Positions 13,152 through 47,059 of a stretch of 64,000 nt of DNA are shown here, in pieces; positions within the stretch are counted from its first letter, which is position 1, and the number at the start of each line of letters is the position of its first letter. Source of the DNA: Desulfobacterales bacterium (lineage in GTDB: Bacteria; Desulfobacterota; Desulfobacteria; Desulfobacterales; SpSt-501); assembly GCA_041736435.1 (NCBI GenBank), contig JBGSTS010000282.1, positions 10,321 to 74,320 of the forward strand. The letters run 5' to 3'. A model generated the notes under the pieces. The model had not been told where the DNA came from. It did not search any database and saw only the letters and a list, made by a program, of their open reading frames with translations. Made by a program: the position numbers and the translations under genes.

Positions 13152-14761
13152 GGCAGCCTCCTACATATAAGGAACTTAACCGCTTTGAGCCGGACGGTCA
13201 ATTGAGCCCCAGCGCCAGCGCCGCAGCCGCCGGGGCAATTTCACCTCGGCGCCGAAAACTGGTCATCTCAGCCTCCCTGCTGGCCCTGTTTTTGGGCGCG
13301 CTGGATGCCCTGGTGATGTCCGCCGCCATGCCGACCGTGGTGGCCGACCTCGGCGGTCTCGAGCTTTTCAGCTGGGTCTACTCCGCCTACCTTCTCGCGC
13401 GCACGGTCGCACTGCCCATTTTCGGCAAGCTGGCCGACATCTATCGCGCCAAAACCCTTTACCTGGCGGCGATCATCGTCTTCATCGCAGCCTCCCTGGC
13501 AGCCGGGTTCGCCACGGGCATGACGTTTTTGATCGTCTGCCGCGCGCTTCAAGGCATCGGGGCTGGCGGCACCTTTGCGCTGGTCTACATCGTGCTGACG
13601 GAACTATCGGCACCCGAAGAGCGCGGAAAAACACTGTCTCTCGGCAGCTTCGTCTGGGGCCTGGCCAGTGTGCTGGGCCCGACCCTGGGTGGATTCATCG
13701 TAGCCTATTTTTCCTGGCGCTGGATCTTCTTCATCAATGTGCCGCTTGGATTTTTATCGCTGGCCGGCATCGCCAAGCACCTGGTCGAGATTCGTAAAAA
13801 GCGAGATCATGTCACTATCGACCTGGCCGGGGCGATCACCCTTTCGGCAACCGTCCTGTGCCTGCTGTTTGTCTTCCTCCTCGGCGGCCAGACCTATGCC
13901 TGGGCATCGCCTCAAATTATCGCCTTGGCGACCGGCTCCATCCTCTTCGGAGCGGCTTTTTACCTTATTGAAAACCGTGCCCAGGACCCCATTCTTCCCC
14001 TTTCGTTTTTCAGAATCCGCGGGTTCAGCGCCGGCAACGCCGCTGTCTTCATGAGCAGCTTTGCCATTTTTGCCTTTTTCGGGTTTGCGCCCCTGTTCAT
14101 CCAGGGGACCCTCGGCAAAAACCCGATGGAGGTCGGCATGACCGTGCTTGCCTTGAGCCTGGGCTGGTCGATCGGATCCTTGATTCTGGGCCGGGGGATC
14201 AACCGCCTGGGAACCCGGGCCGCGTCATTGACCGGGGCCGTGTTTCTCGCCGCAGGCTGTGCACTGACGCTCTCGTTTTCAATGGCCACATCGACCCTCA
14301 CCTGCTTTCTGGTGTTCGGGGTGGTGGGAATCGGCATGGGCTTCGTGGCTCTGGCGACGGTCTTGGTCGTTCAGGACAGCGTCGAGCCATCCGATCTGGG
14401 GGTCGCTACCGCCTCGCACCAGTTTGCACGCAACTTGGGCGGTACGGTTGGCGTGGGCATCTGCGGCAGCATTTTCACCATGCGTTTTTCCCGAGCCATC
14501 GAATCGGTTTTTGCTGAGCGCACCGCGGATGAGCTTCCGCTTGAAATGGCCGAGCACCTTCGGGGACACGTCGACAGCCTTTTCCGCCCCGAAATCCAGG
14601 CTCAAATCCCGGCCGCCCTCCTGCCCGAATTCCAAAAAGCCATCGGGGAAGCGGTCATCGCCGTCTTCTGGTGCACCGTTGTCGCCGCCCTGGTCTGCGT
14701 GGTCTTTTGCCATCTTCTGCCAAAAGATGCGGTACGAAAGAAGACAAACGGTCATAATTAG
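13136..14761 (+). CDS. MFS transporter, 14-TMS DHA2 (EmrB/QacA-like) type
   Basis: LGALDALVMSAAMPTVVADLGG and LQGIGAGG are typical of DHA2 transporters. The start is uncertain: TTG 13136 overlaps the divergent gene, and TTG 13202 is an alternative. Confidence 0.85.
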   Translation: MDRCSWQPPTYKELNRFEPDGQLSPSASAAAAGAISPRRRKLVISASLLALFLGALDALVMSAAMPTVVADLGGLELFSWVYSAYLLARTVALPIFGKLADIYRAKTLYLAAIIVFIAASLAAGFATGMTFLIVCRALQGIGAGGTFALVYIVLTELSAPEERGKTLSLGSFVWGLASVLGPTLGGFIVAYFSWRWIFFINVPLGFLSLAGIAKHLVEIRKKRDHVTIDLAGAITLSATVLCLLFVFLLGGQTYAWASPQIIALATGSILFGAAFYLIENRAQDPILPLSFFRIRGFSAGNAAVFMSSFAIFAFFGFAPLFIQGTLGKNPMEVGMTVLALSLGWSIGSLILGRGINRLGTRAASLTGAVFLAAGCALTLSFSMATSTLTCFLVFGVVGIGMGFVALATVLVVQDSVEPSDLGVATASHQFARNLGGTVGVGICGSIFTMRFSRAIESVFAERTADELPLEMAEHLRGHVDSLFRPEIQAQIPAALLPEFQKAIGEAVIAVFWCTVVAALVCVVFCHLLPKDAVRKKTNGHN

Positions 14762-15208
14762 CGATCGTCTACCGATCTGAAAGGCAAACGCGTCTGTGTC
14801 GGCCCACTGGGCAGCGGCACCGAGCAGAATGCCATGCAGATCCTCGAGGCCTACGGCATGAAGTTCGAGGACTTCGCCAAGGTCGAACGTTTGACGGCGA
14901 CTGAGTCCTCGGACTACATGAAAGACGGCCGCATCGATGCGGCGTTTTACTCCGTGGGTGTGGGTGCAGCCGGCCTGGTGGACACGGCCATCACCGTCGA
15001 CTGCGTTATCGTGCCCGTTGACGGCAGCCAGCGCGATGCGCTGATGAAAAAGTACCCCTTCTTTACCAAGGCCGTGGTTCCCAAAGGTGCTTACAAGGGC
15101 ATCGAACAGGATGTTCCCACCGTAGCGGTCATGGCGATCCTGGCGGCCTTCGCCCTGGTCGGCCTGACGCTCATTCCGGTGAGGACGCTCGAAAAGGAAA
15201 GACCATGA
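14762..15208 (+). pseudogene. remnant of a TAXI-family TRAP solute-binding protein gene (N-terminal part missing, C-terminus aberrant)
   Basis: The frame opens right after the MFS stop and reads ..DLKGKRVCVGPLGSGTEQNAMQILEAYGM...KKYPFFTKAVVPKGAYKGIEQDVPTVAV. This matches the central part of TAXI receptors. There is no signal peptide or N-terminal domain, and only about 148 codons remain. Confidence 0.7.
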
Positions 15209-15662
15209 GCATGGAAGTCAAAATTGAACGTAACGAGGACTTGTTCAAGAAGGCGGAGGCGCTCATCGAGAAGGCCGAATTCGGCGAGAGACGGCTTTCC
15301 GGCGCATCGTGGACACCCTCTACCTGACCGGCGAGGGCATCTTCGGCATACCGCTGTGGGTGTCCTCGACCTTCGTGTTCGCCTTCGTGCTCTTCGGCGC
15401 CATCTTCGAGCGGACCGGCGCCGGGGAATACCTGATGCGCCTGGCCATGTCCCTGGTGGGGCACACCCGCGGCGGTCCGGCCAAGGTGGCCGTCATCGCC
15501 AGCGCCTTTATGGGCACCATCTCCGGCAGCGGGGTGGCCAACACGGCCACCATCGGGACCCTGACCATCCCGCTTATGAAAAAGGTGGGCTTCCGGGCCG
15601 AACTCGCGGGCGGTATCGACACGGTAGCCGGCGGCAACGGTCAGATCATGCCGCCGGCCTGA
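15205..15662 (+). pseudogene. remnant of the fused TRAP (TAXI-type) permease gene; internal deletion with frameshift, and 3' truncation
   Basis: Frame A (15205-15327) reads MSMEVKIERNEDLFKKAEALIEKAEFGERRLSGA and then stops. Frame B (15309-15662) reads VDTLYLTGEGIFGIPL...GGPAKVAVIASAFMGTISGSGVANTATIGTLTIPLMKKVGF...GGNGQIMPPA*. Both match segments of the large fused permease. By my recollection several hundred residues of a full-length permease are missing; needs alignment. Confidence 0.7.
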
Positions 15663-15826
15663 AGACCGCCGCTGCTCGCTGAAATCGACGGTGAACAAAA
15701 TATCATTGACAAAATTTGAAAAACGCATTTTTATCCAAATCTTATTTCCTAGCTAGAATTTTCGGATTGATCTTTTTTTGGGCAGTGACACCCATTCCTC
15801 ATTGAACACAAAGAGATAAAACCATC

Positions 15827-17107
15827 ATGAATTCAGGCAGATTACGCGGGGGCATTCAGTTCTCCTGTCCACTAACCGGTCTATCCAGCCCGTTTGAAGG
15901 CATCCCCTCTCCGCCGAAGGTAATTGTTCCTCTCCAGCAGGATCAGGGAGGCGTTTGCACACCACGGGTCAAGAAGCATGACGTAGTCCTCGTTGGTCAA
16001 CTCATCGGCGAAAGCCCAAACCAAAACGGGGCCTCGATTCATGCCCCTTTATCCGGCAAGGTCACGGAGGTCATCAAAGCCTTTCAAGACATTCACGGAC
16101 GAGCCATCCCGGCCGTTGCCATTGAGTCGGATGGGCAGTCACAACGCTTCGAGGCCCAAGCGGGTGCCGAACCATTTGCGGCCTTGCAGGGCGCGGGGGT
16201 TGTCGATTTTGACCGCATGACCGTTCCGCTGGCTGCCAAACTAGAAGAAGCCAGGGCGCGCAAGGTCAACACGTTGATTGTCAATGCGCTGGACATTGAA
16301 CCGCTGCTCTCCAGCCGAGGCCGGCTGCTGCTGGAAGAGGTTCAGGCAATTGCCGCAGGAATCGATGCCGTCAGAAAGACACTTGACGTCAACCGCGTCC
16401 TCCTGGCGGCTGACGCCGACGCGAATGAGGCCATCGCCGCAGCCACGAAGACATTCGGCGGTTCAGTCCAAATCCTGCCGCTGCGCAACAAATATCCTCA
16501 AGCGGTGGACTACCTGATCGCCAAGAGGGCCCTGAACGTGGAGGTCCCTTTTGCGCACGGCGTCCGCATAGCCGATATCGGGGCCCTCGTGGTCGGTGTC
16601 GAAGCCATGACGGCCGTCGGCCGGAACCAACCGGTGGTGGAACGCTTCATCAGTGTGGCGAACGGCAAGGGCCATATCAAGAATCTCCGGGTGCCCATCG
16701 GCACGCCTATTGGAACGGTCCTGGAACACTGCCGCATCACGCCGGAGCCTGGCGGAAAAATCCTGGCCGGCGGGCCGATGACGGGACCGGCCGTGGCCGG
16801 CTTGGACCAGCCGGTCACCAAAGAGTTCTTGGGCATCTACGTTCAAGGCCGCCGCGAGGTGGTGAAACCGGCGGAGGCGGTCTGCATTAAATGCGGTTTG
16901 TGCGTGGAGGCATGCCCCATGCGCCTGATGCCCTTTCTAATTTCAGGCTTTGCAGAAAAAGGGATGCTTGCCGAAACACAAAATTACGACATTTTCACCT
17001 GCATCGAATGCGGATGCTGTGCATATATCTGCCCGGTCCGGATTCCCATGGTTCAATTCATCACGTTCGCAAAGAAGCAGATCATGGATCAAAGGAAAGA
17101 CGCATGA
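15827..17107 (+). CDS. rnfC: Rnf complex subunit C (divergent central domain)
   Basis: N-terminal barrel motif IHAPLSGKVTEV. C-terminal 2x[4Fe-4S] motifs CIKCGLCVEACP and CIECGCCAYICP. First gene of an rnfCDGEAB arrangement. I could not find the GGAGFPT-type motif (see findings). Confidence 0.85.
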   Translation: MNSGRLRGGIQFSCPLTGLSSPFEGIPSPPKVIVPLQQDQGGVCTPRVKKHDVVLVGQLIGESPNQNGASIHAPLSGKVTEVIKAFQDIHGRAIPAVAIESDGQSQRFEAQAGAEPFAALQGAGVVDFDRMTVPLAAKLEEARARKVNTLIVNALDIEPLLSSRGRLLLEEVQAIAAGIDAVRKTLDVNRVLLAADADANEAIAAATKTFGGSVQILPLRNKYPQAVDYLIAKRALNVEVPFAHGVRIADIGALVVGVEAMTAVGRNQPVVERFISVANGKGHIKNLRVPIGTPIGTVLEHCRITPEPGGKILAGGPMTGPAVAGLDQPVTKEFLGIYVQGRREVVKPAEAVCIKCGLCVEACPMRLMPFLISGFAEKGMLAETQNYDIFTCIECGCCAYICPVRIPMVQFITFAKKQIMDQRKDA

Positions 17108-18090
17108 AACAACCCGAATTCGTCGTATCGGCTTGGCCGCATATTCACAGCGGCAATTCCGTGCGGAACATGATGCTCCACCTGATCATTGCGTTGCTTC
17201 CCGCCGTAGCCGCGGCGTTTTTCGTCTTCGGCGTGGACACGCTCAGAGTCGTAACGATAGCCATCATTTCGGCAGTTTTTTGGGATGCGGTTCTGCAAAA
17301 AATATTCAAACGAAGCCTGTCGATCGGGGATTTGAACGCAGCCGCCAGCGGCCTGATGTTTGCCATGCTGATGCCGGCAACCGTCCCCTGGTGGGTTCTT
17401 GTTGTGGGCACCCTGGTGATGCTGCTGTTGGGAAAACACGTTTACGGCGGGCTGGGGTGCAACCCGTTCAACGGGGTGCTCATCGCCTACGTGGCGCTGC
17501 TGCTCTCCTACCCAGGGCTCGTGGGCGATACGCCTGTGCCGACCTCGGACATGATGATGACCCAGAACCCACCCCTCATGGAACTCAAAGAAAAAGGCGC
17601 AGAGTTCCTGGACGAGACGTTTCCGCTGCAGGATCTTTTTTTGGGCTCTACCCTGATCACGGGGACCATCGGCGAAATCTCCAAATTGGCATTGTTGGTC
17701 GGCGGCCTGTTTCTGATCCTGCGAAGAAAGATCTCCTGGATCATCCCCACCGGTTTCCTAATCGGCCTGGCCGGCGTTGCGACCATTTTTTGGCTGATCG
17801 ACCCGGAGACCTACGCCAGCCCCCTGTTTCATCTTCTGGCCGGAGGCAGCCTGCTGGCGGCATTCTTCCTGGCAACCGATTGGACGACCTCGCCGGTGAC
17901 AAAAACCGGGATGGCGCTTTTCGCACTGGTTTGCGGGGTGATGACCATGGCGATCCGATTATGGTCCCAATGGCCGGAAGGCGCCTATTTTGCCGTTTTC
18001 ATGGTCAGCATGCTGACACCGTTCTTCGACAAACTTCGCCCCAAGATTTTTGGGTCAAAATTCAACCACCAGAGGCAGGCACAATCTTAG
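17104..18090 (+). CDS. rnfD: Rnf complex subunit D
   Basis: ATG 17104 overlaps the rnfC stop (ATGA). MKQPEFVVSAWPHIHSG... polytopic membrane protein with GGLGCNPFN and GTIGEISKLALLVGG. The track ORF (16891) has a spurious N-terminal extension. Confidence 0.9.
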   Translation: MKQPEFVVSAWPHIHSGNSVRNMMLHLIIALLPAVAAAFFVFGVDTLRVVTIAIISAVFWDAVLQKIFKRSLSIGDLNAAASGLMFAMLMPATVPWWVLVVGTLVMLLLGKHVYGGLGCNPFNGVLIAYVALLLSYPGLVGDTPVPTSDMMMTQNPPLMELKEKGAEFLDETFPLQDLFLGSTLITGTIGEISKLALLVGGLFLILRRKISWIIPTGFLIGLAGVATIFWLIDPETYASPLFHLLAGGSLLAAFFLATDWTTSPVTKTGMALFALVCGVMTMAIRLWSQWPEGAYFAVFMVSMLTPFFDKLRPKIFGSKFNHQRQAQS

Positions 18091-18192
18091 CCGGGAGAAC
18101 AATGCGTTCAAGCACCGCGGGCACCTGCGGCTGTTGTCTGGGGTTGATGCCCGCTCCGCTCATCATCAACGTCAACAGGAGGAGAGATACCG

Positions 18193-18789
18193 GTGTCGCT
18201 GCGTGAACTCATTCAAATGGTGCTGGTATTGACGATCGTGACATCGGTCTGCGCCGGCGGGTTGGCCGCTGTCAAGCTGGTCACAAAGGAGCAGATCGAC
18301 TATCAGCAGATCAAGTTCATCAAGGAGCCGGCGCTGAAAAAGATCCTCACGGATTATGATAACGACCCCATATCCGACCGCCTTCAGATCGTGACGGGCA
18401 AGGATGCACGCGGGCGCGATGTAAAAACGACCTTCTTCCTGGCTAAAAAAGGCGGCGACGTGACGAGCCTGGCCTTTGAAGCGGGCGGCAGCGGCTACGG
18501 CGGACCGATCGGTGTGATGATCGCCATCGACCCGAAGGGTGGCATCGTACAAGCCGTTGCCGTCACCACCCAGTCGGAGACGCCGGGGCTGGGATCAAAA
18601 ATAGTGGATGACCCTGATTTCCCTTCCCAATTTTCAAAGAAACCGGTAAGTGCGAACTTCAACCTGGCCGCCGCCGGGGGGGAGATTCAGGCTATCTCCG
18701 GAGCCACGGTTTCCTCCAGCGGGGTGAGCACGGCCGTTAGCAGGGGGGTTGAACTGTATCAAAACGTCAAGTCTCAGCTTGGGTTATAG
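18193..18789 (+). CDS. rnfG: Rnf complex subunit G (FMN-binding)
   Basis: GTG start after AGGAGG. N-terminal TM helix. Flavinylation motif ISGATVSS is present. Confidence 0.9.
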   Translation: MSLRELIQMVLVLTIVTSVCAGGLAAVKLVTKEQIDYQQIKFIKEPALKKILTDYDNDPISDRLQIVTGKDARGRDVKTTFFLAKKGGDVTSLAFEAGGSGYGGPIGVMIAIDPKGGIVQAVAVTTQSETPGLGSKIVDDPDFPSQFSKKPVSANFNLAAAGGEIQAISGATVSSSGVSTAVSRGVELYQNVKSQLGL

Positions 18790-18807
18790 AAGAGGAGGCC
18801 CGGCACC

Positions 18808-19419
18808 ATGGCCGCTCGCATCGTAAACGAGTTTACCAAAGGCTTCTGGAAAGAGATCGCCCCGTTGCGCTTTGCATTAGGCATCTGCCCGTCCCTGGCC
18901 GTGTCCACGAAAGTGGAAAGCGCCCTGGGCATGGGCTTTGCCGTGGTCTTCGTGCTTTGCATGAGCAACGTCCTGATCTCCGCCGTACGCAACCTGGTTC
19001 CGGACAAGGTGCGCATCGCCGTGTTCATCAGCATCATCGCCACCGGCGTGGTCATCGTTGAATTGGTGATGCAGGCCTATTTTTATCCGCTGTTTCTCGT
19101 CCTGGGCATCTGGATCCCGCTGATCGTGGTGAATTGTATCGTTCTGGGCCGCGCGGAGGCCTTTGCTCGAAAGAATACGATACCGCTCTCGCTTTCCGAC
19201 GGCATGGGTATGGGGTTGGGGTTTACCCTCTCCCTGGTGGTAATCTCCAGCATCCGCGAGATCCTGGGCAGCGGGACCTGGCTCGGCATGCTGGTCATGC
19301 CCGAAGCCTATCCGGGGTTCGGGTTTTTGCTCCGGCCACCGGGGGCCTTTGTCATTTTCGGTTTGATTCTGGGAATTATGAACGTCATCTCGGCCCGGAT
19401 CGAAAAAAAGACGGCTTAA
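18808..19419 (+). CDS. rnfE: Rnf complex subunit E
   Basis: LGICPSLAVSTKVESALGMG and IPLIVVNCIVLGRAEAFA are typical of RnfE/NqrD. Confidence 0.9.
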   Translation: MAARIVNEFTKGFWKEIAPLRFALGICPSLAVSTKVESALGMGFAVVFVLCMSNVLISAVRNLVPDKVRIAVFISIIATGVVIVELVMQAYFYPLFLVLGIWIPLIVVNCIVLGRAEAFARKNTIPLSLSDGMGMGLGFTLSLVVISSIREILGSGTWLGMLVMPEAYPGFGFLLRPPGAFVIFGLILGIMNVISARIEKKTA

Positions 19420-19454
19420 TCACCCGATAGCTGCTGACATTCGAGGAAACCGCC

Positions 19455-20033
19455 ATGCAAGACTACCTGTTGATGATTGTGGCCGCGATGTTCATCAACA
19501 ACATCGTGCTGATCCGTTTCATGGGCAACTGCCCGGTGGTGGGCGTCACCAGTTCGTATGAAAGTGCGGTGGGCATGGGGGCTGCAGTAATTTTCGTGGC
19601 AACCATGGCCGGGACCACCTGCTGGATCATTCAAAAAACCATACTGGAAGTGTTGGGGATCGAATACCTGCAGACCTTGGTTTTTATTTTGGTCATAGCG
19701 GCCCTGGTTCAGTTTGTGGAAATCCTGATGCAAAAAGTGGCCCCACCCCTCTACCGGGCGCTGGGCATCTTCCTGCCACTGATCACCACCAATTGCATGG
19801 TTTTCGGTGTCTCTGTCCTGAACATCAAGGAAGAGCACAGCTTCATGCAAACCCTGATCTTTTCCTTGGCCTCTGCGGTCGGATTCGCCCTGGTGCTGCT
19901 CTTCATGGCCGGCTTGCGGGAGCGAATGGATGCCACCGGGCGCGTCCCCAGCCTGCTGCGGGGCGTACCCATCACCCTGATCACCGCCGGGATGATGGGG
20001 CTTAGTTTTGCCGGGCTTCTGGGCATGGCTTAA
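19455..20033 (+). CDS. rnfA: Rnf complex subunit A
   Basis: NNIVLIRFMGNCPVVGV and LPLITTNCMVFGV are typical of RnfA/NqrE. Confidence 0.9.
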   Translation: MQDYLLMIVAAMFINNIVLIRFMGNCPVVGVTSSYESAVGMGAAVIFVATMAGTTCWIIQKTILEVLGIEYLQTLVFILVIAALVQFVEILMQKVAPPLYRALGIFLPLITTNCMVFGVSVLNIKEEHSFMQTLIFSLASAVGFALVLLFMAGLRERMDATGRVPSLLRGVPITLITAGMMGLSFAGLLGMA

Positions 20034-20052
20034 AACCGCGAGGGCGCAAAAA

Positions 20053-20877
20053 ATGGAACCTGTCCTTACCGCAATTCTTACCGTGGGCGCCATCGGCATG
20101 CTGGCCGGCCTCATCCTGGGCGTGACGGCAAAGATTTTCTACGTCCATGTCGACCCGCGCATCGGACACGTGGCGGACATTCTGCCCGGCGCCAACTGCG
20201 GGGGATGCGGCTACGCCGGGTGCACGGACCTGGCCGCGGCCATCGTCCAGGGCAATGCCCCGGCCAATGCCTGCAAGGCCGCCAGCGACGAGCTGGCCCA
20301 GAAAATCGCCTCCATGCTGGGCATCTCCGTCGATCAGCAGGAGCGGCAGGTGGCCCAGATCTTCTGCCATGGCGATGCCGCCCATGCGCAGCGCAAATTC
20401 GTCTACTTGGGCATCCAGGACTGCCGGGCCGCCCAGTTGGTTTCCGGCGGCGACAAGGCCTGTACTTATGGCTGTCTCGGTCTGGGCACTTGCGTTCAGG
20501 GTTGTTTCTTCGGTGCCCTGCATATGGGCCCAAACGGTCTGCCCGTGGTGGACACGGAGTTGTGCACGGGCTGCGGGAGCTGCACCAAAATCTGCCCCCG
20601 GCATATCCCCAAGCTGATTCCGGTTTCTCAGAAGGCCGCCGCCTTTTGCTCCTCGCATGACGCGGGCAAGGTGGTCAAAGAGATCTGCGAGGTGGGCTGC
20701 ATCGGATGCGGGCTGTGTAAAAAGGTCTGCCCCGAAAATGCAGTTGAGATCGATAAATTTCTTTCCGTGGTGGATCCCGCAAAATGCACCGGTTGCGGGA
20801 AATGCTTTGAAAAATGCCCCACCGGCATTATCCAGTCGGTGGTGCTGACCCGGGACTTGAAAAAAAAGGCGGCGTAG
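20053..20877 (+). CDS. rnfB: Rnf complex subunit B (polyferredoxin)
   Basis: Start at ATG 20053 (MEPVLTAIL). TM helix, then the CGGCGYAGC cluster, then several CxxCxxCxxxCP ferredoxin motifs. Confidence 0.9.
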   Translation: MEPVLTAILTVGAIGMLAGLILGVTAKIFYVHVDPRIGHVADILPGANCGGCGYAGCTDLAAAIVQGNAPANACKAASDELAQKIASMLGISVDQQERQVAQIFCHGDAAHAQRKFVYLGIQDCRAAQLVSGGDKACTYGCLGLGTCVQGCFFGALHMGPNGLPVVDTELCTGCGSCTKICPRHIPKLIPVSQKAAAFCSSHDAGKVVKEICEVGCIGCGLCKKVCPENAVEIDKFLSVVDPAKCTGCGKCFEKCPTGIIQSVVLTRDLKKKAA

Positions 20878-20893
20878 TGGTTGCCGGCAACCC

Positions 20894-21403
20894 ATGAGCC
20901 AGGAGCGCAAAGAGGTAGGCGAAATAGTGGCCGTCACAGGCCGCACAGCTCAGGTGAAAATGACGCGCAGCTCGCAATGCTCCTCCTGTTCCTGCGCCGG
21001 GTTCTGCAACCCTTTCGGCACGGATTGGATGGTAGTCACTGCCGACAACGCACTGGGAGCGGCCGCCGGTCAGAAGGTGCGCATCACCTATCACGTGGAC
21101 GGGGAGGTGAAAGCCTCCTTCATTCTTTACATCGTCCCCGTGCTCGCCCTGTTGCTCGGTGCCATGATCGGGGCCGCCATCCGCCTTTTCGGCAACGAGG
21201 ATTTTTCGGCGGTTGTGGTAGGCCTGTCGTTCATGGCGGTTTCGTTTCTGCTGATTAGAACCTATGCTGCCTGGAAATACGGCCGGAAACGATCCTATCA
21301 CCCCATCATCACCGGCGTGCTGAGCGAACAGGAAAAAATGGGTTGGGGAGTCAACCGCCCCGCGCCGTCGAAAGAATCCTCGGCGCAAAGTGACACTTAC
21401 TAA
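20894..21403 (+). CDS. rseC: RseC/MucC-family (SoxR-reducing system) membrane protein
   Basis: N-terminal Cys cluster (CSSCSCAGFC) followed by two TM helices. Positioned after rnfB, as in many rnf/rsx loci. Confidence 0.7.
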   Translation: MSQERKEVGEIVAVTGRTAQVKMTRSSQCSSCSCAGFCNPFGTDWMVVTADNALGAAAGQKVRITYHVDGEVKASFILYIVPVLALLLGAMIGAAIRLFGNEDFSAVVVGLSFMAVSFLLIRTYAAWKYGRKRSYHPIITGVLSEQEKMGWGVNRPAPSKESSAQSDTY

Positions 21404-21545: not shown

Positions 21546-21905
21546 ATGAACGACAATGTGCTGGTCATGCTGTCCTGCGGCACAGACGACCCCAACCGTG
21601 CGACCCGCGCCTTGTTTTTCGCCGTGGTGGCTCAGAAGAAAGGCAAAAAGGTGGTGGTTTTCCTTCTGGACGAGGGCGTTTACCTGGCCAAAAAAGGGCT
21701 CATCCAGCACTTGCGAGCTGCCACCGGGGACTCGGCCGACGACCACCTGGCCTTTTTGCAGGAGTGGGAGGTGCCGATCCTGGTGTGCACCCCGTGCGCC
21801 CTCACCCGGCAGATCACCGAGGCCGACCTGGTCAGAGGGGCCCGCATGGCCAAGGGCGAGGAGATGATCGATCTGGCCTGCAACAGCACCGTGCTGAGCT
21901 TTTAG
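21546..21905 (+). CDS. DsrE/DsrF-like sulfur-relay family protein
   Basis: 119 aa, starting MNDNVLVMLSCGTDDPNRATRALFFA, with VCTPCAL. The size and pattern fit DsrE-family proteins. Confidence 0.65.
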   Translation: MNDNVLVMLSCGTDDPNRATRALFFAVVAQKKGKKVVVFLLDEGVYLAKKGLIQHLRAATGDSADDHLAFLQEWEVPILVCTPCALTRQITEADLVRGARMAKGEEMIDLACNSTVLSF

Positions 21906-22048: not shown

Positions 22049-23428
22049 TCAGAGCGGATCAAAAACCGCCGTAAAGTGGCGCAGCAGCGGCGGCTCCAGG
22101 ACGATGCGCATCCCCTTAATTTTATCCCGCTGGGAAAACAGCGCTCCGATGCACTCGACCACATAGTCCATGTGGCTCTGGGTGTAGACTCGCCGCGGGA
22201 TGGCAAGCCGCACCAGCTCCATCGGCGCCGGTTGGAATTGCCCGGTCGCCGGGTCCGTTTTGCCGAACATGACGCTGCCGATCTCGCAAGCGCGGACCCC
22301 GCCCTCCAGGTACAGGGCGCAGGCGAGCGCCTGGCCGGGAAACTGATGCGGCGGGATATTGGGCAGAAACGCGGCCGCATCCAGGTAGACTGCATGCCCG
22401 CCGGCCGGTTTAAACACCGGCACCCCTATGGCGTCGAGTTTGTCCACCACGTAAGCCACCGAACGGATGCGGTACTTCAGGTACTCCTCGTCCAGGACCT
22501 CGTCGAGTCCCTGGGCAAAGGCCTCCAGGTCCCGGCCGGCCAGGCCGCCGTAAGTCGGGAACCCCTCGGTGACGATCAGGATGTTGCGGGCCTTTTGGGC
22601 CAGCTCGTCGTCATTCACGGCCAGAAACCCGCCGATGTTGACCAACCCGTCCTTCTTGCCGCTCATGGTGCAGCCGTCGGCATAGGAAAACATCTCCTGG
22701 GCCAGCTGCTTCACGGAACGGCCCTTGCATCCCGGCTCACGGGTCTTGATAAACCAGGCGTTTTCGGCGAAGCGGCAGGCATCGATGAAAAATGGTATCC
22801 GGTAGGAGCGGCACAGCTCCGACACCCGGCGGATGCAGCCCATGGAGACCGGCTGGCCGGCGCAGGAGTTGTTGGTGACCGTCATCATCACCAGGGGGAT
22901 CTGCTCCCGGCCCTTCTGCTTGAGCAAGCGTTCCAGTGCGGCGATGTTCATGTTGCCCTTGAAGTCCTGGACCAGAGAGGGGGTGAGCGCTTCTTTGACC
23001 GGCAGGTCCACGGCCTCGGCGCCGCTCACCTCGATGTTGGCCCGGGTGGTGTCGAAATGGCTGTTGCTGGGAATGGTCTTGCCCGCGCCGCCCATGATTT
23101 CGAAGAGAATCTTTTCGGCGGCCCGCCCCTGGTGGGTGGGGATGATGTGCTTGAACCCGGTCAGCTCTTTCACCACCCGCTCGAAGCGGTAGAAGCTGCG
23201 GGCGCCGGCGTAAGACTCGTCCCCGTCGATAATCCCGGCCCACTGGGTTGCGCTCATGGCGCAGGTGCCGCTGTCGGTCAGCAGGTCGATGAGCACATGC
23301 TCCGCCCGAACGCCGAAGAGATTGTAGCCCGCCTGTTTGAGAACGTCCTGGCGCTCCGCGCGTGTTGTCATCCGCAGAGGCTCAACGGTCTTGATTTTGA
23401 ACGGCTCGATGATGGTCTTGATCGTCAT
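22049..23428 (-). CDS. tnaA: tryptophanase-family beta-eliminating lyase (tryptophanase-like; tyrosine phenol-lyase not excluded)
   Basis: DLLTDSGT, IPTHQGRAAE, RFAENAWFIK, the PLP lysine in MSGKKDGLVNIGG, and EGFPTYGGL. From memory, RFAEN and FPTYGG resemble TnaA more than TPL. Confidence 0.85.
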   Translation of the reverse strand: MTIKTIIEPFKIKTVEPLRMTTRAERQDVLKQAGYNLFGVRAEHVLIDLLTDSGTCAMSATQWAGIIDGDESYAGARSFYRFERVVKELTGFKHIIPTHQGRAAEKILFEIMGGAGKTIPSNSHFDTTRANIEVSGAEAVDLPVKEALTPSLVQDFKGNMNIAALERLLKQKGREQIPLVMMTVTNNSCAGQPVSMGCIRRVSELCRSYRIPFFIDACRFAENAWFIKTREPGCKGRSVKQLAQEMFSYADGCTMSGKKDGLVNIGGFLAVNDDELAQKARNILIVTEGFPTYGGLAGRDLEAFAQGLDEVLDEEYLKYRIRSVAYVVDKLDAIGVPVFKPAGGHAVYLDAAAFLPNIPPHQFPGQALACALYLEGGVRACEIGSVMFGKTDPATGQFQPAPMELVRLAIPRRVYTQSHMDYVVECIGALFSQRDKIKGMRIVLEPPLLRHFTAVFDPL

Positions 23429-23550
23429 GGGATATCCGCGTGTTGGGGAAGTTTGACTTTAATAGGTCGCACCTGTAGTCTGTCGGTCGGGTGCGCACGC
23501 TTCTGGAATTTCGAATGGTTCTCAGCCGCACAGCAAGTGGTGGCCGAACG

Positions 23551-24015
23551 ATGAACAAACAACACGAATTCGGTGACATTCTGAGCATCGTTCATGAAGT
23601 CACCGAAAAAATCCCCTTCAACCAGGTTCTGGGGCTCACGGTCGAGTCGCTGGACCTCGACCAGCCGACCGTGCGCCTGACCATGCAGGAACAGCTGATC
23701 GGGAATTTCATCCGCGGCTCGCTGCATGGAGGGGTCATATCGAGCACGTTGGACTTCATGGGCGGGCTGGTCGCCTTTCTGGGTGTGCTGAAGACCCTGC
23801 AGGGCCAGCCGCTGCAGGTAATGGCCGAACGGTTCGCCCGGATCGGCACCATCGACCTGCGGGTGGACTACCTCAGGCCGGGGATCGGCACGCATTTTAT
23901 CGCCACGGGCTATGTCCTGCGCACCGGGAAAAAGGTCTCCGTGACCCGCATGGAACTCCACAACGACGAGCGACAGCTGATCGCCGTGGGTACCGGGGCT
24001 TACACCGTGGCGTAG
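23551..24015 (+). CDS. hotdog-fold thioesterase (PaaI/YigI-like)
   Basis: GSLHGGVISSTLD core motif. Start chosen at ATG 23551 (MNKQHEF). Confidence 0.7.
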   Translation: MNKQHEFGDILSIVHEVTEKIPFNQVLGLTVESLDLDQPTVRLTMQEQLIGNFIRGSLHGGVISSTLDFMGGLVAFLGVLKTLQGQPLQVMAERFARIGTIDLRVDYLRPGIGTHFIATGYVLRTGKKVSVTRMELHNDERQLIAVGTGAYTVA

Positions 24016-24105: not shown

Positions 24106-24591
24106 TTAACGGCCCTCCGGCAGATGGCACCCGTTGCAGGTGGTCGGTGGCAGCTTGGCAAGCTGGGCTTTGCCGCCCTTGCCTGCCCGGCGCAACTCCC
24201 ACGTTTTCGCCCGGACCTCCTTGTGACAGCCCAGCCAGCAGGTTTTGTGGAAGGCGGTTTTAAAGTACATATTGTCGTCCCAGGCATCGGATTTGCCGGA
24301 CTCGATGGTGGGCTCGGTTTCATCGTGGCAGCCGGAAACACTGCAGCCCATCGGCGGCTCGGAGCCGTCAAAGGTGTGGTGACAGTTGACGCAGGCGAAG
24401 TCGAAGTGCGAAAAATGCTTGAAAGAAACCGGAGCCCGTTTGGCCTCCACACCCTCGGGCGCCGAGAGCAGATAGGTCTCTTCTCCGAAGCAGGAATCGC
24501 CGTTTTGGGCCTGGCTCGAAAAACCGTGCATCACCCCCAGCAGGACGAATCCCGCCACCAGCACACTCAGCAAGACGACTCGGTTGCGCAT
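24106..24591 (-). CDS. periplasmic tetraheme cytochrome c3-type protein
   Basis: Four heme-binding sites are read directly: CVNCH, CSVSGCH (CX4CH), CWLGCH, CNGCH. A signal peptide is present. Start at ATG 24591, preceded by AAGGAG. Confidence 0.85.
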   Translation of the reverse strand: MRNRVVLLSVLVAGFVLLGVMHGFSSQAQNGDSCFGEETYLLSAPEGVEAKRAPVSFKHFSHFDFACVNCHHTFDGSEPPMGCSVSGCHDETEPTIESGKSDAWDDNMYFKTAFHKTCWLGCHKEVRAKTWELRRAGKGGKAQLAKLPPTTCNGCHLPEGR

Positions 24592-24687
24592 GGACCCCAC
24601 TCCTTTCACGTACAGTTACTTGATATCCGCGTTCGTATCCCCTTAACAGAAAATCACGGTGAAGAAAAGCCTCTCTGAGCGCCGCTC

Positions 24688-43145: not shown

Positions 43146-45755
43146 GTGAACACTCGGTGGACACTCGTTAGGAATGTGATACCGAAAGCGCTCATCAAGG
43201 AACTCAAGCGGATCGTCGGCGAGCGGCACGTGTCCGAGTCCCGTGCCGCCGCTGAACTCTACTCTTACGACGGTTCGCTCGCCCGGGGTGCACCGGGTGT
43301 GGCGGTGTTTCCCGCCGATGCGCACGAAACCAGCCGGGTTGTCGCGGCCGCTTCCCGGGTCGGTGTGCCTTTGGTTGCGCGGGGCTTCGGGACGAATCTC
43401 TCCGGCGGCACGGTTCTGTCCCGGCCTGGTCTCACCGTCTGTCTCTCGCGGATGAACCGCATATTAGGCATCTCTCCCTTCAGCCGCACCGCCGTGGTTC
43501 AGCCCGGCGTCACCAACCTGGAGCTCCAGAACGCGCTTTCCCCGCTGGGTTTTTTCTACGCGCCGGACCCCGCCAGCCAGAAGGTGTCCACCCTGGGGGG
43601 CAACGTCGGCGAGAACTCCGGTGGCCCGCGCTGTTTGAAGTACGGCGTCACCTCCAACCATGTTCTCGGGCTGGAGGTCGCCCTGCCCTGCGGAGAACTG
43701 CTACGGACGGGCGGGGCGGCCTGCGACCCTCCCGGATACGACCTGCGAGGGCTGCTCATCGGCAGCGAGGGCACCCTGGCCGTTGTGACCGAAGCCACGC
43801 TGCGCATCCTGCCCAAACCGGAAAAGGTGATCACCCAGCTTGTGGTCTACGACGAGATCGCCGCCGCCGCCCGGTCGGTTGCCGGCATCATCGCGGCCGG
43901 CATCGTGCCGGCCACCCTTGAGATGATGGACGCGCCGATCCTTCGCGCGGTGGAGGAGAGCCTCGCCTGCGGATATCCGCGGGATGCGGCGGCGGTGCTG
44001 ATCATCGAGGTGGAAGGCCCTGAAGCCGGGCTGGAAACCCAGGCGCAGCGCATTCGCGCCATCTGCATGGCCAACCGCTGCCGGGAGGTTCGGGACGCCG
44101 CAACGGCCGAGGAACGCAACCGGCTCTGGGAGGGCCGGCGCGGGGCCTTCGGCGCCGTAGCGCGCCTGGCCCCGAACTACCTTGTCAACGACTGCACCGT
44201 TCCCCGCACCCTGCTGCCCGAGGCCCTGGCGCGGGTGGCCGATATCACCGGACGCTACGGCTTCGAGCACGGCAACGTGTTCCACGCCGGGGACGGAAAC
44301 CTCCACCCCCTTATCCTGTTCGACTCTCGCGACCCGGGCCAGCTCGACCGGGTGCACGCGGCAGGCTGGGAGATCATGCTGGCCTGCGTGGCCCTGGGCG
44401 GTACGATCTCGGGCGAGCACGGGATCGGTCTCGAAAAAATGGAAGCCATGCGCCTGGTCTTCTCGGACGAGGAGATCGATTCCCAGCGCTCGCTTCAGGA
44501 TGCCTTCGATCCGGACCGCATCCTGAATCCCGGAAAAATGTTCCCGGACACGAGCAAGCCCTTTGCGTTCCGTGATCAGGCGGCCTGGCCCAGGCCCCCT
44601 AACCCGCTGACCGCCGTCGAGAACAACCTCGCGAAGCGCGTACGAAAGGCCTGTGCGGCCGGGCAGGCGCTGCGGCCGATCGGCAGCGATTCCACAAGGG
44701 GTTTTGGAAACCTGCTGCTTGGCCCGTGGCAGAGCATCTCAACGGATGCGTTGAACTCGGTCGTCGAACTCGACCCGTCCAACCAGGTGGTGACCGTAGG
44801 CGCCGGCATGCGTCTAGCCGCCATTCAAGCTGCGTTGGCCCCCCACAACCAGTGGCTGCCCTTGCGGCCCGCCTTTTGCCTGACGCAACGCAGCATCGGC
44901 GGTATCACGGCAACCAATGCCTGCGGCCCGGAACGGGTTGCTTATGGTTCTCCGCGCAAGCTCTTGTTGGGGCTGCGATTCATCGACGGCCGCGGCCGCC
45001 CGATCACCACCGGCGGCAAGGTCGTGAAGAACGTCGCCGGTTACGATCTGACCCGTCTGCTGACCGGGTCGGCCGGGACCCTGGGGCTCATCACACGGGT
45101 GACCCTAAGGACCGCCACCCGGCCGGAACGCTGCGCCTCGATCTCGGCTTCCGGAAGTCCGGAGGCCTGCGGCGAACTGGCAGCGGCGGTGCTCGGCTCC
45201 AGGATAGGGGCGGTCTTGACGGCAGCCGTGCCCGAGGAGCAGACCGGCCGCTGGCGGTTCGAAATCGGTTTCGAGGGGTTCGGGGAAACCGTTGCCGCCC
45301 AGCTGGCACGCGCCGGTATGCTTTTTGAGCAAGCCGGCTTCAGCTCCGTCCGGGTCGCGGACTACGACGTGCTCACCGGGCCTTTTGCCGGGCTTTACGA
45401 GCGCATCGCAGGCTGCCCCTTTGCGATGCGGGCCGCGGTATCACTAGACCGAACCGGTCAGGCCGCAGCCCTTCTGGGACGGCAGTTCCAGGCGAAGTCG
45501 ATGCTGGTCGATTTCGGCTGCGGGCGAATCCTGACCGGAGGCGGCGAGCTGTGCGAGGACTCCTGGCGCGAGGTCGTGCGGCAAATGGGCAGCCTGGGCG
45601 GGCACGCCGTACTGGAGACTGCACCGGATGAATTCAAGCGCGGCAACGACATATTCGGAGCACCGCGCCCCGATTGGAATCTCATGCACCGGGTCAAGAG
45701 CGTGCTCGACCCCAGGCTCATTTTTTCGCGCGGAGCCATGCCCGGCCGGGTTTGA
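43146..45755 (+). CDS. glcD: FAD-linked oxidase, GlcD-like and GlcE-like modules fused in one 869-aa polypeptide
   Basis: The first half has FGTNLSGG, GYDLRGLLIGSEGTLAVVTEATLRI and GEHGIGLEK. The second half has a second PCMH-type FAD module, KNVAGYDLTRLLTGSAGTLGLITRVTLR. It is one continuous ORF. Confidence 0.8.
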   Translation: MNTRWTLVRNVIPKALIKELKRIVGERHVSESRAAAELYSYDGSLARGAPGVAVFPADAHETSRVVAAASRVGVPLVARGFGTNLSGGTVLSRPGLTVCLSRMNRILGISPFSRTAVVQPGVTNLELQNALSPLGFFYAPDPASQKVSTLGGNVGENSGGPRCLKYGVTSNHVLGLEVALPCGELLRTGGAACDPPGYDLRGLLIGSEGTLAVVTEATLRILPKPEKVITQLVVYDEIAAAARSVAGIIAAGIVPATLEMMDAPILRAVEESLACGYPRDAAAVLIIEVEGPEAGLETQAQRIRAICMANRCREVRDAATAEERNRLWEGRRGAFGAVARLAPNYLVNDCTVPRTLLPEALARVADITGRYGFEHGNVFHAGDGNLHPLILFDSRDPGQLDRVHAAGWEIMLACVALGGTISGEHGIGLEKMEAMRLVFSDEEIDSQRSLQDAFDPDRILNPGKMFPDTSKPFAFRDQAAWPRPPNPLTAVENNLAKRVRKACAAGQALRPIGSDSTRGFGNLLLGPWQSISTDALNSVVELDPSNQVVTVGAGMRLAAIQAALAPHNQWLPLRPAFCLTQRSIGGITATNACGPERVAYGSPRKLLLGLRFIDGRGRPITTGGKVVKNVAGYDLTRLLTGSAGTLGLITRVTLRTATRPERCASISASGSPEACGELAAAVLGSRIGAVLTAAVPEEQTGRWRFEIGFEGFGETVAAQLARAGMLFEQAGFSSVRVADYDVLTGPFAGLYERIAGCPFAMRAAVSLDRTGQAAALLGRQFQAKSMLVDFGCGRILTGGGELCEDSWREVVRQMGSLGGHAVLETAPDEFKRGNDIFGAPRPDWNLMHRVKSVLDPRLIFSRGAMPGRV

Positions 45756-45820
45756 AAATGTAGTGGACCTGACCCGAGACCCCGGGCCGTCCTGTTTCAG
45801 GATCACGAGATACGTATCCG

Positions 45821-47059
45821 ATGGCCATCGTCGACCATTACGAGGATATTGCCCACTGCAACCGCTGCGGCTTCTGCCAGGTGGCCTGCCCGGTCTTCCG
45901 GTCCACGGGGCACGAGGGGGGCGTGGCCCGGGGGCGCCTGGCCTTGCTGAGGGCGCTGATCGAAAACCGGATCCCGTGGAACGCAGAGCTTGAAGAGCCG
46001 CTCTACGACTGCCTGCTGTGCGGTGCCTGCACGAGCAACTGCTTCCCGGCCATACCGACCTCGGAGATCGTCATCCGCGCGCGTGCGGAGTACCTGCAGA
46101 AGGTCGGGCGCACATCGACCCACCGGCTGCTGTTCGAAAAACTCCTGCCGTATCCGCGGCGGCTGCATGTGGCCGCTCGCGCCGTGGCTCTTGGCAAGAA
46201 CAGCGGCATGAGCCGGTTGGCACAGGCCCTGGGGTTGCTGCGCATCTTCGGCCGCGATTTCGCCCGGGCCGAGGCCATCGTCACCCGCCTGCCCACCCAA
46301 CCGCTCCGGGCGCGCCTCAAACCGGGAATCTACCCGGGGCAGGGGCCCCGGATGCGGGTGGCCTATTATATCGGCTGCGGGGTGGACATCGTCACCCAGG
46401 CGGCCGGAGAGGCCTCTTTTGCGCTGCTGCGGCAGACCGCCAGGGAGGTCTGCCTCCTCGCAACCAACTGCTGCGGCCTGCCGGCCTGGGGGTATGGGGA
46501 TTTGGAGGCGGCGCGAAACCTGGCTGCCAAAAACCTGGCGCTCGTCGGCAGCGGCGGATTCGACGCCATCGTCACGGACTGCTCGAGCTGCGCATCCTTT
46601 ATCAAGCACTACCCGGCCCTGTTTTCAGCGGATGACCCCCGTCGGGAAACGGCACGGGACACCGCAGCCCGGGTCCGCGACATCTGCGAATGGATTGCCT
46701 CGGAGACGCAACCCGCCTCGACAAGCCTGCGGGGCCGGCGGGTGACCTTCCACGACCCCTGCCACCTCTCGCGCGGCCAGGGGCTGGCAAAGCTCCCGCG
46801 CGAGATCCTGCGCCGCATTCCGGAAACCGAGTTTGTCGAGCTGCCCGAAGCCGACTGGTGCTGCGGCGGGGCCGGCGCCTATGCGCTGTCCCACTACGAG
46901 CTGGCAATGCAGGTCTTGGACCGCAAGATGGTGAACCTGAAAAGGACCGGGGCGGAGGTGCTCGTGACGACCTGCCCGGCGTGCATCATCCAGCTCTCCC
47001 ACGGCGTGCGCCGGCACGGGCTCCACGTCGACGTCAAACACCTTACCGAAATCCTATAG
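45821..47059 (+). CDS. glcF: Fe-S subunit of glycolate/D-lactate oxidase type (GlcF-like, CCG domains)
   Basis: CNRCGFCQVACP and CLLCGACTSNCF ferredoxin motifs, plus C-terminal cysteine-rich CCG-type repeats (DCSSCA, WCCGGAG). Confidence 0.85.
   Translation: MAIVDHYEDIAHCNRCGFCQVACPVFRSTGHEGGVARGRLALLRALIENRIPWNAELEEPLYDCLLCGACTSNCFPAIPTSEIVIRARAEYLQKVGRTSTHRLLFEKLLPYPRRLHVAARAVALGKNSGMSRLAQALGLLRIFGRDFARAEAIVTRLPTQPLRARLKPGIYPGQGPRMRVAYYIGCGVDIVTQAAGEASFALLRQTAREVCLLATNCCGLPAWGYGDLEAARNLAAKNLALVGSGGFDAIVTDCSSCASFIKHYPALFSADDPRRETARDTAARVRDICEWIASETQPASTSLRGRRVTFHDPCHLSRGQGLAKLPREILRRIPETEFVELPEADWCCGGAGAYALSHYELAMQVLDRKMVNLKRTGAEVLVTTCPACIIQLSHGVRRHGLHVDVKHLTEIL

Follow-up and report, generated by a model that had tools for sequence, protein, structure and literature searches.

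The Rnf operon described here occupies positions 15827-21403 of a 64,000-nucleotide stretch of contig JBGSTS010000282.1 (hereafter the window; ~60% G+C) from a metagenome-assembled genome (MAG) of a Desulfobacterales bacterium. It consists of seven genes on the plus strand, in the order rnfC, rnfD, rnfG, rnfE, rnfA, rnfB and a rseC-like gene; all frames are intact, and the successive intergenic gaps are -4, 102, 18, 35, -26 and 16 nt. Pfam and NCBIfam assign the products to RnfC, RnfD, RnfG, RnfE, RnfA, RnfB and RseC, and the scores on the general models (TIGR01945, TIGR01946, TIGR01947, TIGR01948, TIGR01943 and TIGR01944) are all above the cutoffs, in agreement with the intact and tightly packed operon reported in the initial annotation. 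Judged from its sequence, the complex is an Rnf by subunits, fold and most of its cofactor ligands, but it fails two defining features of a ferredoxin:NAD+ (nicotinamide adenine dinucleotide) oxidoreductase; two flavin sites and the NAD site have very probably been lost.

As for the individual genes, rnfC (15827..17107, 426 amino acids) encodes an N-terminal barrel, a NuoF-like domain devoid of the motifs for flavin mononucleotide (FMN) and NADH, and a C-terminal 2x[4Fe-4S] ferredoxin domain (PF13375, PF01512 and Fer4), and rnfD (17104..18090, 328 amino acids) is matched by PF03116 (E = 9.5e-90) and by TIGR01946 (269 bit); the family searches on these two subunits returned the domains expected of them. 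The gene rnfG (18193..18789, 198 amino acids; PF04205) encodes the periplasmic FMN-binding subunit, closest to the DVU2794 type, and is followed by rnfE (18808..19419, 203 amino acids; PF02508 and NF009070) and rnfA (19455..20033, 192 amino acids; PF02508 and TIGR01943, the latter at 235.8 bit). The open reading frame (ORF) of rnfB, at 20008..20877, encodes the polyferredoxin input subunit (PF04060 FeS domain and several Fer4 families; NF005503 at 259 bit, cutoff 252), and the rseC-like gene (20894..21403, 169 amino acids; PF04246, E = 6.2e-27), with the N-terminal four-Cys cluster CSSCSCAGFC, is the last of the operon. Two starts required attention: the first codon of rnfD lies at 17104, where ATGA overlaps the stop of rnfC, and not further upstream, and the rnfB frame opens at TTG 20008, although its likely start is ATG 20053, giving 274 amino acids, because the family models align only from residue 16-19. 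The absence of an apbE flavin-transferase gene from the cluster was confirmed, and none occurred among the 27 window proteins (part of its ORFs) scanned against Pfam. A promoter and terminator scan of the operon gave counts no higher than in shuffled sequences.

Regarding RnfC, TIGR01945 recognizes it with 295.5 bit against a cutoff of 245.95, and a phmmer search of all solved structures aligned it over its full length with the chains from Azotobacter vinelandii (8ahx_C, E = 9e-56), Clostridium tetanomorphum (7zc6_C) and Acetobacterium woodii (9eri_C). In these alignments, and in a MAFFT alignment including Escherichia coli RsxC, GLGGAxFP is paired with DFDRMTVP, NGAECEPY (NGxECEPY) with NALDIEPL, and YPQGAEK with YPQAVDY; RsxC from the K-12 genome carries the canonical strings at all three motifs. 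Thus, on the plus strand of the window, VVDFDRMTVPL (residues 125-135, 16199..16231) replaces the glycine-rich FMN/NADH loop (I/V)VG(L/M)GGAxFP(T/A), with the acidic D127 in the place of the phosphate-binding glycines, NALDIEPLLS (residues 153-162, 16283..16312) replaces NGxECEPYLT, and YPQAVDYL (residues 223-230, 16493..16516) replaces YPQGAEKQ. The substituted strings stand exactly where the initial annotation had placed them, and the alignment on which it relied is upheld by the three cryo-EM structures and by RsxC. No GG.GFP, G.GG or EC[ED]P string occurs anywhere in the 426 residues, the first of these having been reported missing before, and only 5 of the 13 key FMN/NADH motif positions agree, whereas 101 of 108 canonical sequences have all 13.

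The barrel and both C-terminal 4Fe-4S motifs are kept, as had been claimed, and the two CxxCxxCxxxCP motifs (residues 353-364 and 392-403, 16883..17035, plus strand), which read CIKCGLCVEACP and CIECGCCAYICP and are the sites of two [4Fe-4S] clusters, are intact with all eight Cys. The AlphaFold2 model of the protein, with a mean predicted local distance difference test score of 80.7 and confident over residues 20-340, has RnfC chains as its best fold matches (template modelling score, TM, 0.76), followed by NqrA (TM 0.51-0.56) and then by NuoF-type subunits; the RnfC fold is retained and the FMN/NADH ligands are gone.

RnfD aligns with 9eri_D, 7zc6_D, 8ahx_D and NqrB. In C. tetanomorphum the FMN of this subunit is carried by T153, and in A. 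woodii by T156 (PMC9588780, PMC11889175), and the corresponding column in the window protein is Asn/Pro, within the string TQNPP, both in the phmmer alignment with the structures and in a MAFFT alignment with E. coli RsxD. Residues 148-162 (17545..17589, plus strand), which read SDMMMTQNPPLMELK, replace the flavinylation motif D-x-x-[ST]-x-A-T-P-L, with SDMMMTQNPPL where D-x-x-[ST]-x-A-T is expected. There is no GA[TS] tripeptide anywhere in the window RnfD, so that both earlier observations on this subunit, the missing tripeptide and the sequence found at residue 148, are borne out.

The relation between the two subunits was surveyed in 80 genome loci fetched around RnfC homologues, 64 canonical and 16 with an RnfC lacking the motifs (hereafter motif-less), the latter being the window and 15 relatives. 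In the canonical loci the A-T of the RnfD motif is present in 64/64 and its upstream Asp in 63/64, and all 16 motif-less loci depart from the flavinylation motif; four of these, of the Desulfobacterales type, retain a Thr at the flavin position and have pocket residues changed like the others. In C. tetanomorphum numbering, the FMN-pocket changes in the motif-less loci introduce bulky hydrophobic side chains: R130 to W/Y (16/16), S284 to Y/F (15/16) and N90 to L/I (16/16). The R130 change was discarded as a stand-alone marker, because E. coli RsxD has Tyr at this position and yet keeps its Thr, so that this single substitution is not decisive. The riboflavin ligands of RnfD, N124 and D248 (N123 and D249 in A. 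woodii), are retained in all 16 motif-less loci, window included. The losses in RnfC and RnfD are therefore coupled in every locus examined.

As for the remaining subunits, RnfG keeps its covalent-FMN motif, as already noticed: ISGATVSS lies at residues 168-175 (18694..18717, plus strand), with the flavin-carrying Thr retained, and at -6 of the transferase motif Gln takes the place of Asp (the region reads GEIQAISGATVSS). Among the first 73 homologues listed, 70 have the [ST]GA[TS] motif, and SGAT/TGAT is retained throughout the motif-less clade; in the window subclade (as seen among the RnfG homologues P0199-P0237) Gln, Gly, Asn or His stands at -6 instead of the Asp of the ApbE recognition motif Dxx[st]gA[TS], SGAT-x-SS being strictly kept, and the Asp is present in more distant clade members and in Desulfohalovibrio reitneri. 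The best-scoring model for the window RnfG is NF045876 (RnfG_DVU2794, named after a Desulfovibrio vulgaris Hildenborough locus), with 204.8 bit against a cutoff of 205, the general TIGR01947 giving 115.4 bit; the same model scores 172-247 bit on RnfG of other motif-less loci and 76-145 bit on RnfG of canonical loci. The Cys residues that hold the membrane [2Fe-2S] cluster in RnfA and RnfE (PMC9588780, PMC11889175) are retained in conserved GxCP and NC contexts (C27 and C110 in RnfE, C26 and C114 in RnfA). Finally, RnfB, with its PF04060 and Fer4 matches, conforms to a polyferredoxin bearing an N-terminal anchor and an FeS domain, and it has 24 Cys, with three CxxCxxCxxxC motifs plus CGGCGYAGC.

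The closest relatives of the window RnfC and RnfG are from MAGs of uncultured Desulfobacterales bacteria, with 74-80% identity, and from a Desulfonatronum MAG, with 65%. Among 120 RnfC homologues, replaced motifs occur in the top-ranked 58 (P0001-P0058) and in P0066, P0088 and P0113; the remainder are canonical save three outliers. A larger sample of 202 RnfC, inclusive of three structural references and one cultured species, was used for a neighbour-joining tree. Identity at the key motif positions is bimodal in this sample, with 13/13 in 101 sequences, 10-12 in 7, at most 7 in 94, and none at 8 or 9, and one split of the tree parts the 94 motif-less from the 108 canonical RnfC with zero exceptions. 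Degenerate RnfC in this sample thus falls into a single clade, and the loss in RnfD accompanies it at all 16 loci, which answers the question, raised at the outset, of whether such proteins form a clade. As for the wider operon, the majority of related motif-less loci (L003-L007, L009-L011 and L013) likewise have rseC after rnfB, an arrangement that canonical Bacteroidota loci show too.

The two sides of the tree differ in column entropy at the 24 NAD/FMN motif columns: the motif-less sequences have 1.96 bit, against 1.93 bit for all columns, and the canonical ones 0.46 bit, against 1.72 bit. On the Fe-S motif columns, constraint persists on both sides (0.74 bit canonical, 0.46 bit motif-less), and all eight Cys are 100% conserved in the 94 and in the 108. 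These values indicate that selective constraint on the NAD/FMN columns has vanished in the motif-less clade; a few residues of the former pocket are conserved clade-wide (D127, P134-L135, N153, D156 and P224-Q225). The earlier proposal that canonical binding of NAD(H) or FMN by the window RnfC is impossible gains support from the structural alignment, the clade-wide loss and the vanished constraint. The gene itself is not decaying, because purifying selection acts on it: the ratio of nonsynonymous to synonymous substitution rates (dN/dS) is ~0.2 against the three closest relatives, and by domain the NuoF-like part has 0.24-0.26, the barrel 0.10-0.13 and the ferredoxin part 0.13-0.18. Relatives at 31-80% identity share the gene order and the motifs.

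A profile search of 1.84 billion representative proteins returned 2990 RnfC-like proteins at E <= 1e-30. RnfC of the window type is rare, because the top 12 of these matches belong to it (593-375 bit), after which the score drops to 365 bit. Among the best 150 of the 2990 representatives, 26 score at most 8/13, including the window type and about a dozen others with a degenerate glycine loop; ten of these others were scanned and all pass the general rnfC model. Since further lineages carry such proteins, RnfC may have lost its NAD site several times. A degenerate glycine loop and ECEP are found outside the clade in P0313, P0323, P0332, P0337, P0359, P0364, P0373, P0399, P0424 and P0433, of which the eight scanned pass TIGR01945.

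The nearest cultured organism is D. reitneri (Desulfovibrionaceae), reached through RnfG, which scores 247 bit on NF045876. Its operon comprises a decahaem cytochrome gene, rnfC (395 amino acids), rnfD, rnfG, rnfE, rnfA, an rnfB fused to a GltD-like domain, and apbE. Its RnfC lies on the motif-less side of the tree and is matched by Fer4 families only, PF13375 and PF01512 still matching the window protein, and its RnfC and RnfD are without the FMN/NADH and covalent-FMN sites. The C-terminal fusion of RnfB (Fer4_20 and Pyr_redox_2, an NAD(P)H flavoprotein; 687-710 amino acids overall) occurs in D. reitneri and in two metagenomic operon types (L082 11928-14060; L085/L086 9833-11896; L087 9510-11612, the last two being the metagenomic ones), all with motif-less RnfC and RnfD, and the fusion retains the FeS and Fer4 domains of RnfB; a 2024 paper interprets this arrangement as rnfB loss plus a separate oxidoreductase dependent on flavin adenine dinucleotide (FAD) (PMC11434368). 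The motif-less clade has at least three architectures, namely rnfCDGEAB-rseC, the cytochrome-led Desulfovibrio type, and the RnfB-GltD fusions.

Two loci of the clade have further features of their own. In L083 (3620-4642 and 9995-10917), a Desulfonatronovibrio MAG, apbE lies directly upstream of rnfC and a universal-stress-protein gene lies between rnfB and rseC; in some clade members the operon thus has a flavin transferase gene linked to it despite an RnfD without the site. In L085, two large multihaem cytochrome genes (569 and at least 598 amino acids; 13536-16582, minus strand) are found ~1.6 kb downstream of rnfCDGEA-rnfB::gltD, on the opposite strand. The homology searches for RnfC, whose returns are mostly MAG proteins, included none from D. 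vulgaris or D. alaskensis; the extension of the loss to DVU2792 and Dde_0581 is indirect, because D. reitneri serves as their proxy.

The functional consequences can be considered against the canonical path, in which electrons pass from ferredoxin to the RnfB clusters, the RnfA/E [2Fe-2S] cluster, the FMN of RnfG, the FMN and then the riboflavin of RnfD, the two [4Fe-4S] clusters of RnfC, its FMN, and NAD+ (PMC9588780, PMC11889175). With the solved complexes of A. woodii (9eri), C. tetanomorphum (7zc6) and A. vinelandii (8ahx), that of the window shares the six subunits, in the clostridial order rnfCDGEAB and with the same folds, together with the RnfB Fe-S chain, the RnfA/E Cys, the RnfG Thr, the RnfD riboflavin ligands and the 2x[4Fe-4S] of RnfC; it differs from them by an RnfC without FMN/NADH motifs and an RnfD without the covalent-FMN Thr and its pocket. 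Every ligand through the FMN of RnfG is retained, and the next cofactor, the RnfD FMN, and the last one, the RnfC FMN, are missing; for this reason the electron route to NAD+ of the solved structures cannot exist as such in the window complex.

The preferred interpretation, to which a probability of about 0.5 is given, is that the operon encodes a functional, NAD-independent Rnf variant with electron exit or entry at RnfG via periplasmic c3-type cytochromes. Judged from the sequence, the outward path, from ferredoxin to the RnfB Fe-S chain, the RnfA/RnfE [2Fe-2S] cluster and the FMN on periplasmic RnfG, is intact, and the canonical return path is cut twice, at the covalent FMN of RnfD and at the FMN/NADH motifs of RnfC. 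Electrons would leave, or in reverse enter, at the RnfG FMN, with soluble periplasmic c3-type cytochromes as the most likely partner. Ion translocation would still be driven at the RnfA/E cluster: a study on A. woodii places ion pumping there, with RnfD only returning electrons (PMC11889175), and a complex ending at RnfG could for this reason still translocate ions. The way back to the cytoplasm would lead through further transmembrane complexes of the sulfate reducer, bypassing RnfD and RnfC, and RnfC would be mainly an NqrA-like scaffold, its Fe-S clusters lying off the main path or taking part in a side reaction. That the complex uses a different partner or flavin complement, as suggested in the initial annotation, is supported by the coupled loss in RnfC and RnfD and by its clade-wide occurrence, the identity of the partner being a matter of inference.

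The evidence pointing to a periplasmic exit consists of the cytochrome-led sister operons, the precedent of Methanosarcina acetivorans, whose Rnf does not use NAD and whose RnfG is the proposed donor to cytochrome c (PMC4023990), the GltD-like input module, and a nearby c3-type gene. In D. alaskensis, a decahaem cytochrome is co-transcribed with rnf (PMC4841214), which counts in the same direction. As for the GltD-like module, NAD+ is unlikely as the output of the clade, because in three sister loci the NAD(P)H flavoprotein domain is fused to RnfB, on the input side. The nearby gene, at 24106..24609 on the minus strand, encodes a class III (c3-type) cytochrome c of 167 amino acids (PF02085, E = 8e-13), whose N-terminus is signal-like and whose four haem motifs comprise two CxxCH and two CxxxxCH, and it is a candidate periplasmic partner located outside the operon; it is the only ORF of the window with at least two CxxCH, and its position relative to rnf is common only to one close relative (L003). 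A cytochrome gene within or beside the rnf operon was also considered and rejected, the only c3-type gene being 2.7 kb away, on the other strand and so placed in a single relative.

Several observations weigh against this interpretation. The window operon has no cytochrome gene, and most of the rnfCDGEAB-rseC subclade lacks one over a distance of 10 kb as well; the decahaem cytochrome of the D. alaskensis operon was dispensable where Rnf was needed (PMC4215793); the flavin-transferase Asp is gone from RnfG in the subclade of the window, with no apbE among the window proteins scanned; finally, a cytoplasmic arm without electron flow would not easily account for the eight RnfC Cys and the riboflavin ligands being perfectly conserved.

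The last point is the starting ground of the strongest alternative, which is considered unlikely although it fares better than the others: the cytoplasmic arm would work with another end, electrons passing from the RnfG FMN to the RnfD riboflavin, the two [4Fe-4S] clusters of RnfC and a protein partner docked in the vacated NAD cleft. The transfer from RnfG to riboflavin would be direct or mediated by aromatic side chains now occupying what was the FMN pocket, and the partner might be another ferredoxin or a flavodoxin, DsrC, or a module of the Hdr/Flox type, making the complex a ferredoxin:X oxidoreductase whose two substrates are both cytoplasmic. The invariant Cys, with Fe-S columns more constrained than those of canonical RnfC, the riboflavin ligands retained in 16/16 loci, the purifying selection on the NuoF-like domain and the few new clade-wide residues of the former pocket are all consistent with such a route. 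However, loss of the RnfD FMN, which in C. tetanomorphum has gaps of <5 Å and 7.7 Å on its two sides (PMC9588780), removes the relay between the RnfG FMN and riboflavin, and bridging without it would probably exceed an efficient tunnelling distance; no partner gene is conserved beside the operon except rseC, which accompanies canonical Rnf too; and the former NAD/FMN columns are as variable as the average, which argues against a new, precisely shaped binding site in RnfC.

It is decidedly less probable that the complex is an ordinary ferredoxin:NAD+ oxidoreductase, in which RnfC would bind flavin and NAD(H) by non-canonical residues and the flavin of RnfD would be non-covalent. In favour of it, every subunit passes the general models of the Rnf families, the modelled RnfC keeps its fold, the phenotypes of D. 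alaskensis Rnf were interpreted as ferredoxin:NADH activity (PMC4215793), and the Tyr of E. coli RsxD, which coexists with the retained Thr, cautions that single substitutions do not decide the matter. Nevertheless, the three RnfC motifs are replaced together, with an acidic residue among them where glycines bind phosphate; their columns show no residual constraint; the RnfD flavin site is lost in the same clade; and the canonical sequences that are identical at all 13 key positions come from many phyla. Moreover, a survey of ferredoxin:NAD+ activity across bacteria (PMC4715464) does not mention Desulfovibrio, and no measurement of this activity for the clade was found in the literature searched. 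The weakest alternative, a decaying or non-functional remnant, could appeal to the fragmented TRAP transporter genes directly upstream and was rejected as very improbable on the dN/dS of rnfC and the seven intact frames, together with the conservation of gene order and motifs across relatives and the perfect conservation of the remaining cofactor ligands.

Returning to an NAD-independent Rnf that exchanges electrons at RnfG, its closest functional analogue would be the Rnf-MmcA complex of M. acetivorans, a ferredoxin:methanophenazine system that does not react with NAD(P) and for which the RnfG FMN is the proposed exit to a c-type cytochrome (PMC4023990, PMC11024163). In Methanosarcina, the order rnfCDGEAB is followed by a gene for a small membrane protein, as in the window; the operon begins with mmcA, unlike that of the window, which has no cytochrome gene. 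The window proteins stay far below the cutoffs of the Methanosarcina-specific models (score/cutoff: RnfC 192.6/650, RnfD 179.7/400, RnfG 86/230, RnfE 184/350, RnfA 187.6/300, RnfB 273/445), and none of ten motif-poor representatives searched for a Methanosarcina-type RnfC reached the cutoff of its model. A preprint describes the known cofactor sites as conserved in M. acetivorans (10.1101/2022.07.20.500911), and by comparison with this description the window complex has lost two of them. The complex would accordingly work most like Rnf-MmcA and be no member of it.

The Rnf of the Desulfovibrio type (dhcA-rnfCDGEAB-rnfF/apbE, as in DVU2791-2798) is a further comparison: the window RnfC falls on the same side of the tree as that of D. 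reitneri, which lacks the same sites, and NF045876, the RnfG family of this type, is by far the best-scoring model for the window RnfG, just short of its cutoff. The differences are in the gene neighbourhood, with a decahaem gene upstream and apbE downstream in the Desulfovibrio type, and TRAP fragments upstream and rseC plus a DsrE-like gene downstream in the window, and in the GltD-like fusion of D. reitneri RnfB, which the window RnfB does not share.

In Na+-NQR, an NADH:quinone oxidoreductase that translocates Na+, NqrA is an RnfC homologue without NAD and FMN sites that serves as a scaffold (PMC4014512, PMC9588780); it is the next-best fold match, after RnfC chains, for the window model, and the membrane core of the two complexes is homologous. 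NqrA has lost the Fe-S Cys, of which the window RnfC keeps eight, and NqrB keeps the covalent FMN (SGAT) that the window RnfD has lost; furthermore, Na+-NQR has NqrF (FAD, 2Fe-2S, NADH) in place of RnfB and reduces ubiquinone, whereas the window has RnfB and its proteins are far below the cutoffs of the nqr models. The window RnfC stands halfway to NqrA, in that it has lost its NAD and FMN sites and kept those for the Fe-S clusters.

Regarding the surroundings of the operon, the TRAP-transporter fragments upstream of rnfC (14834-15208 and 15309-15662, plus strand) look like pseudogene remnants, covering positions 128-231 of 289 of NMT1_3 (solute receptor) and 50-148 of 413 of DctM, and they are called likewise on an independent Logan contig (L001). 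Directly after rseC, a DsrE/DsrF-like gene (21546-21905, plus strand, 119 amino acids) is found, as in L003 and L005 and not in more distant members; it is followed by genes for a beta-eliminating lyase (tryptophanase-like, 22049-23428, minus strand) and a thioesterase (23491-24015). Further away, at 43146-47059 on the plus strand, an 869-residue FAD-linked oxidase with two FAD_binding_4 stretches precedes a 412-residue Fe-S protein that contains CCG domains; together they are reminiscent of the glycolate or D-lactate dehydrogenase modules common in sulfate reducers.

In the papers searched, the Rnf of sulfate reducers is treated as a ferredoxin:NAD+ oxidoreductase (PMC4215793, PMC4841214, PMC4287179, PMC10553843, PMC11434368), none of these papers noting the loss, and a 2025 review does not mention Desulfovibrio (PMC12174285). 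No statement of RnfC/RnfD site loss in sulfate reducers was found in the full texts searched, although an earlier description is possible (Pereira et al. 2011 and Biegel et al. 2011, for example, lie outside their coverage). Automatic annotation names the relatives "Na+-translocating ferredoxin:NAD+ oxidoreductase subunit C", a name that is probably wrong for the motif-less clade.

A broader proposal, more tentative than that made for the window complex, is that the whole sulfate-reducer branch, including this MAG, Desulfonatronum, Desulfohalobiaceae and the Desulfovibrio type, has Rnf complexes that are not ferredoxin:NAD+ oxidoreductases and might instead be half-path redox pumps, an evolutionary intermediate between Rnf and Nqr. 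Such a pump would carry electrons outward from a cytoplasmic donor, ferredoxin or, where RnfB bears the GltD-like domain, NAD(P)H, to the periplasmic cytochrome c3 pool, with the ion carried at RnfA/E; run inward, it would make reduced ferredoxin from periplasmic H2 or formate.

In conclusion, the matter is of interest to anaerobic bioenergetics, on the basis of sequence inference, because nearly all energy schemes of sulfate reducers, including those built on D. alaskensis genetics (PMC4215793, PMC4841214) and on metagenomics (PMC10553843), depict Rnf as coupling ferredoxin to NAD+. If the clade cannot touch NAD, these schemes assign the wrong redox partners and energetics, and the energy-conservation schemes of Desulfovibrio would have to be redrawn; similarly, the phenotype of rnf mutants, which do not grow on H2, formate or ethanol, would need another explanation, for which a connection of ferredoxin with the cytochrome pool of the periplasm is a candidate. 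The members of the clade are also natural cofactor knock-outs of the RnfD FMN and the RnfC FMN, and as such they bear directly on the debate about whether the pumping site of Rnf and Nqr is at RnfA/E or at RnfD.

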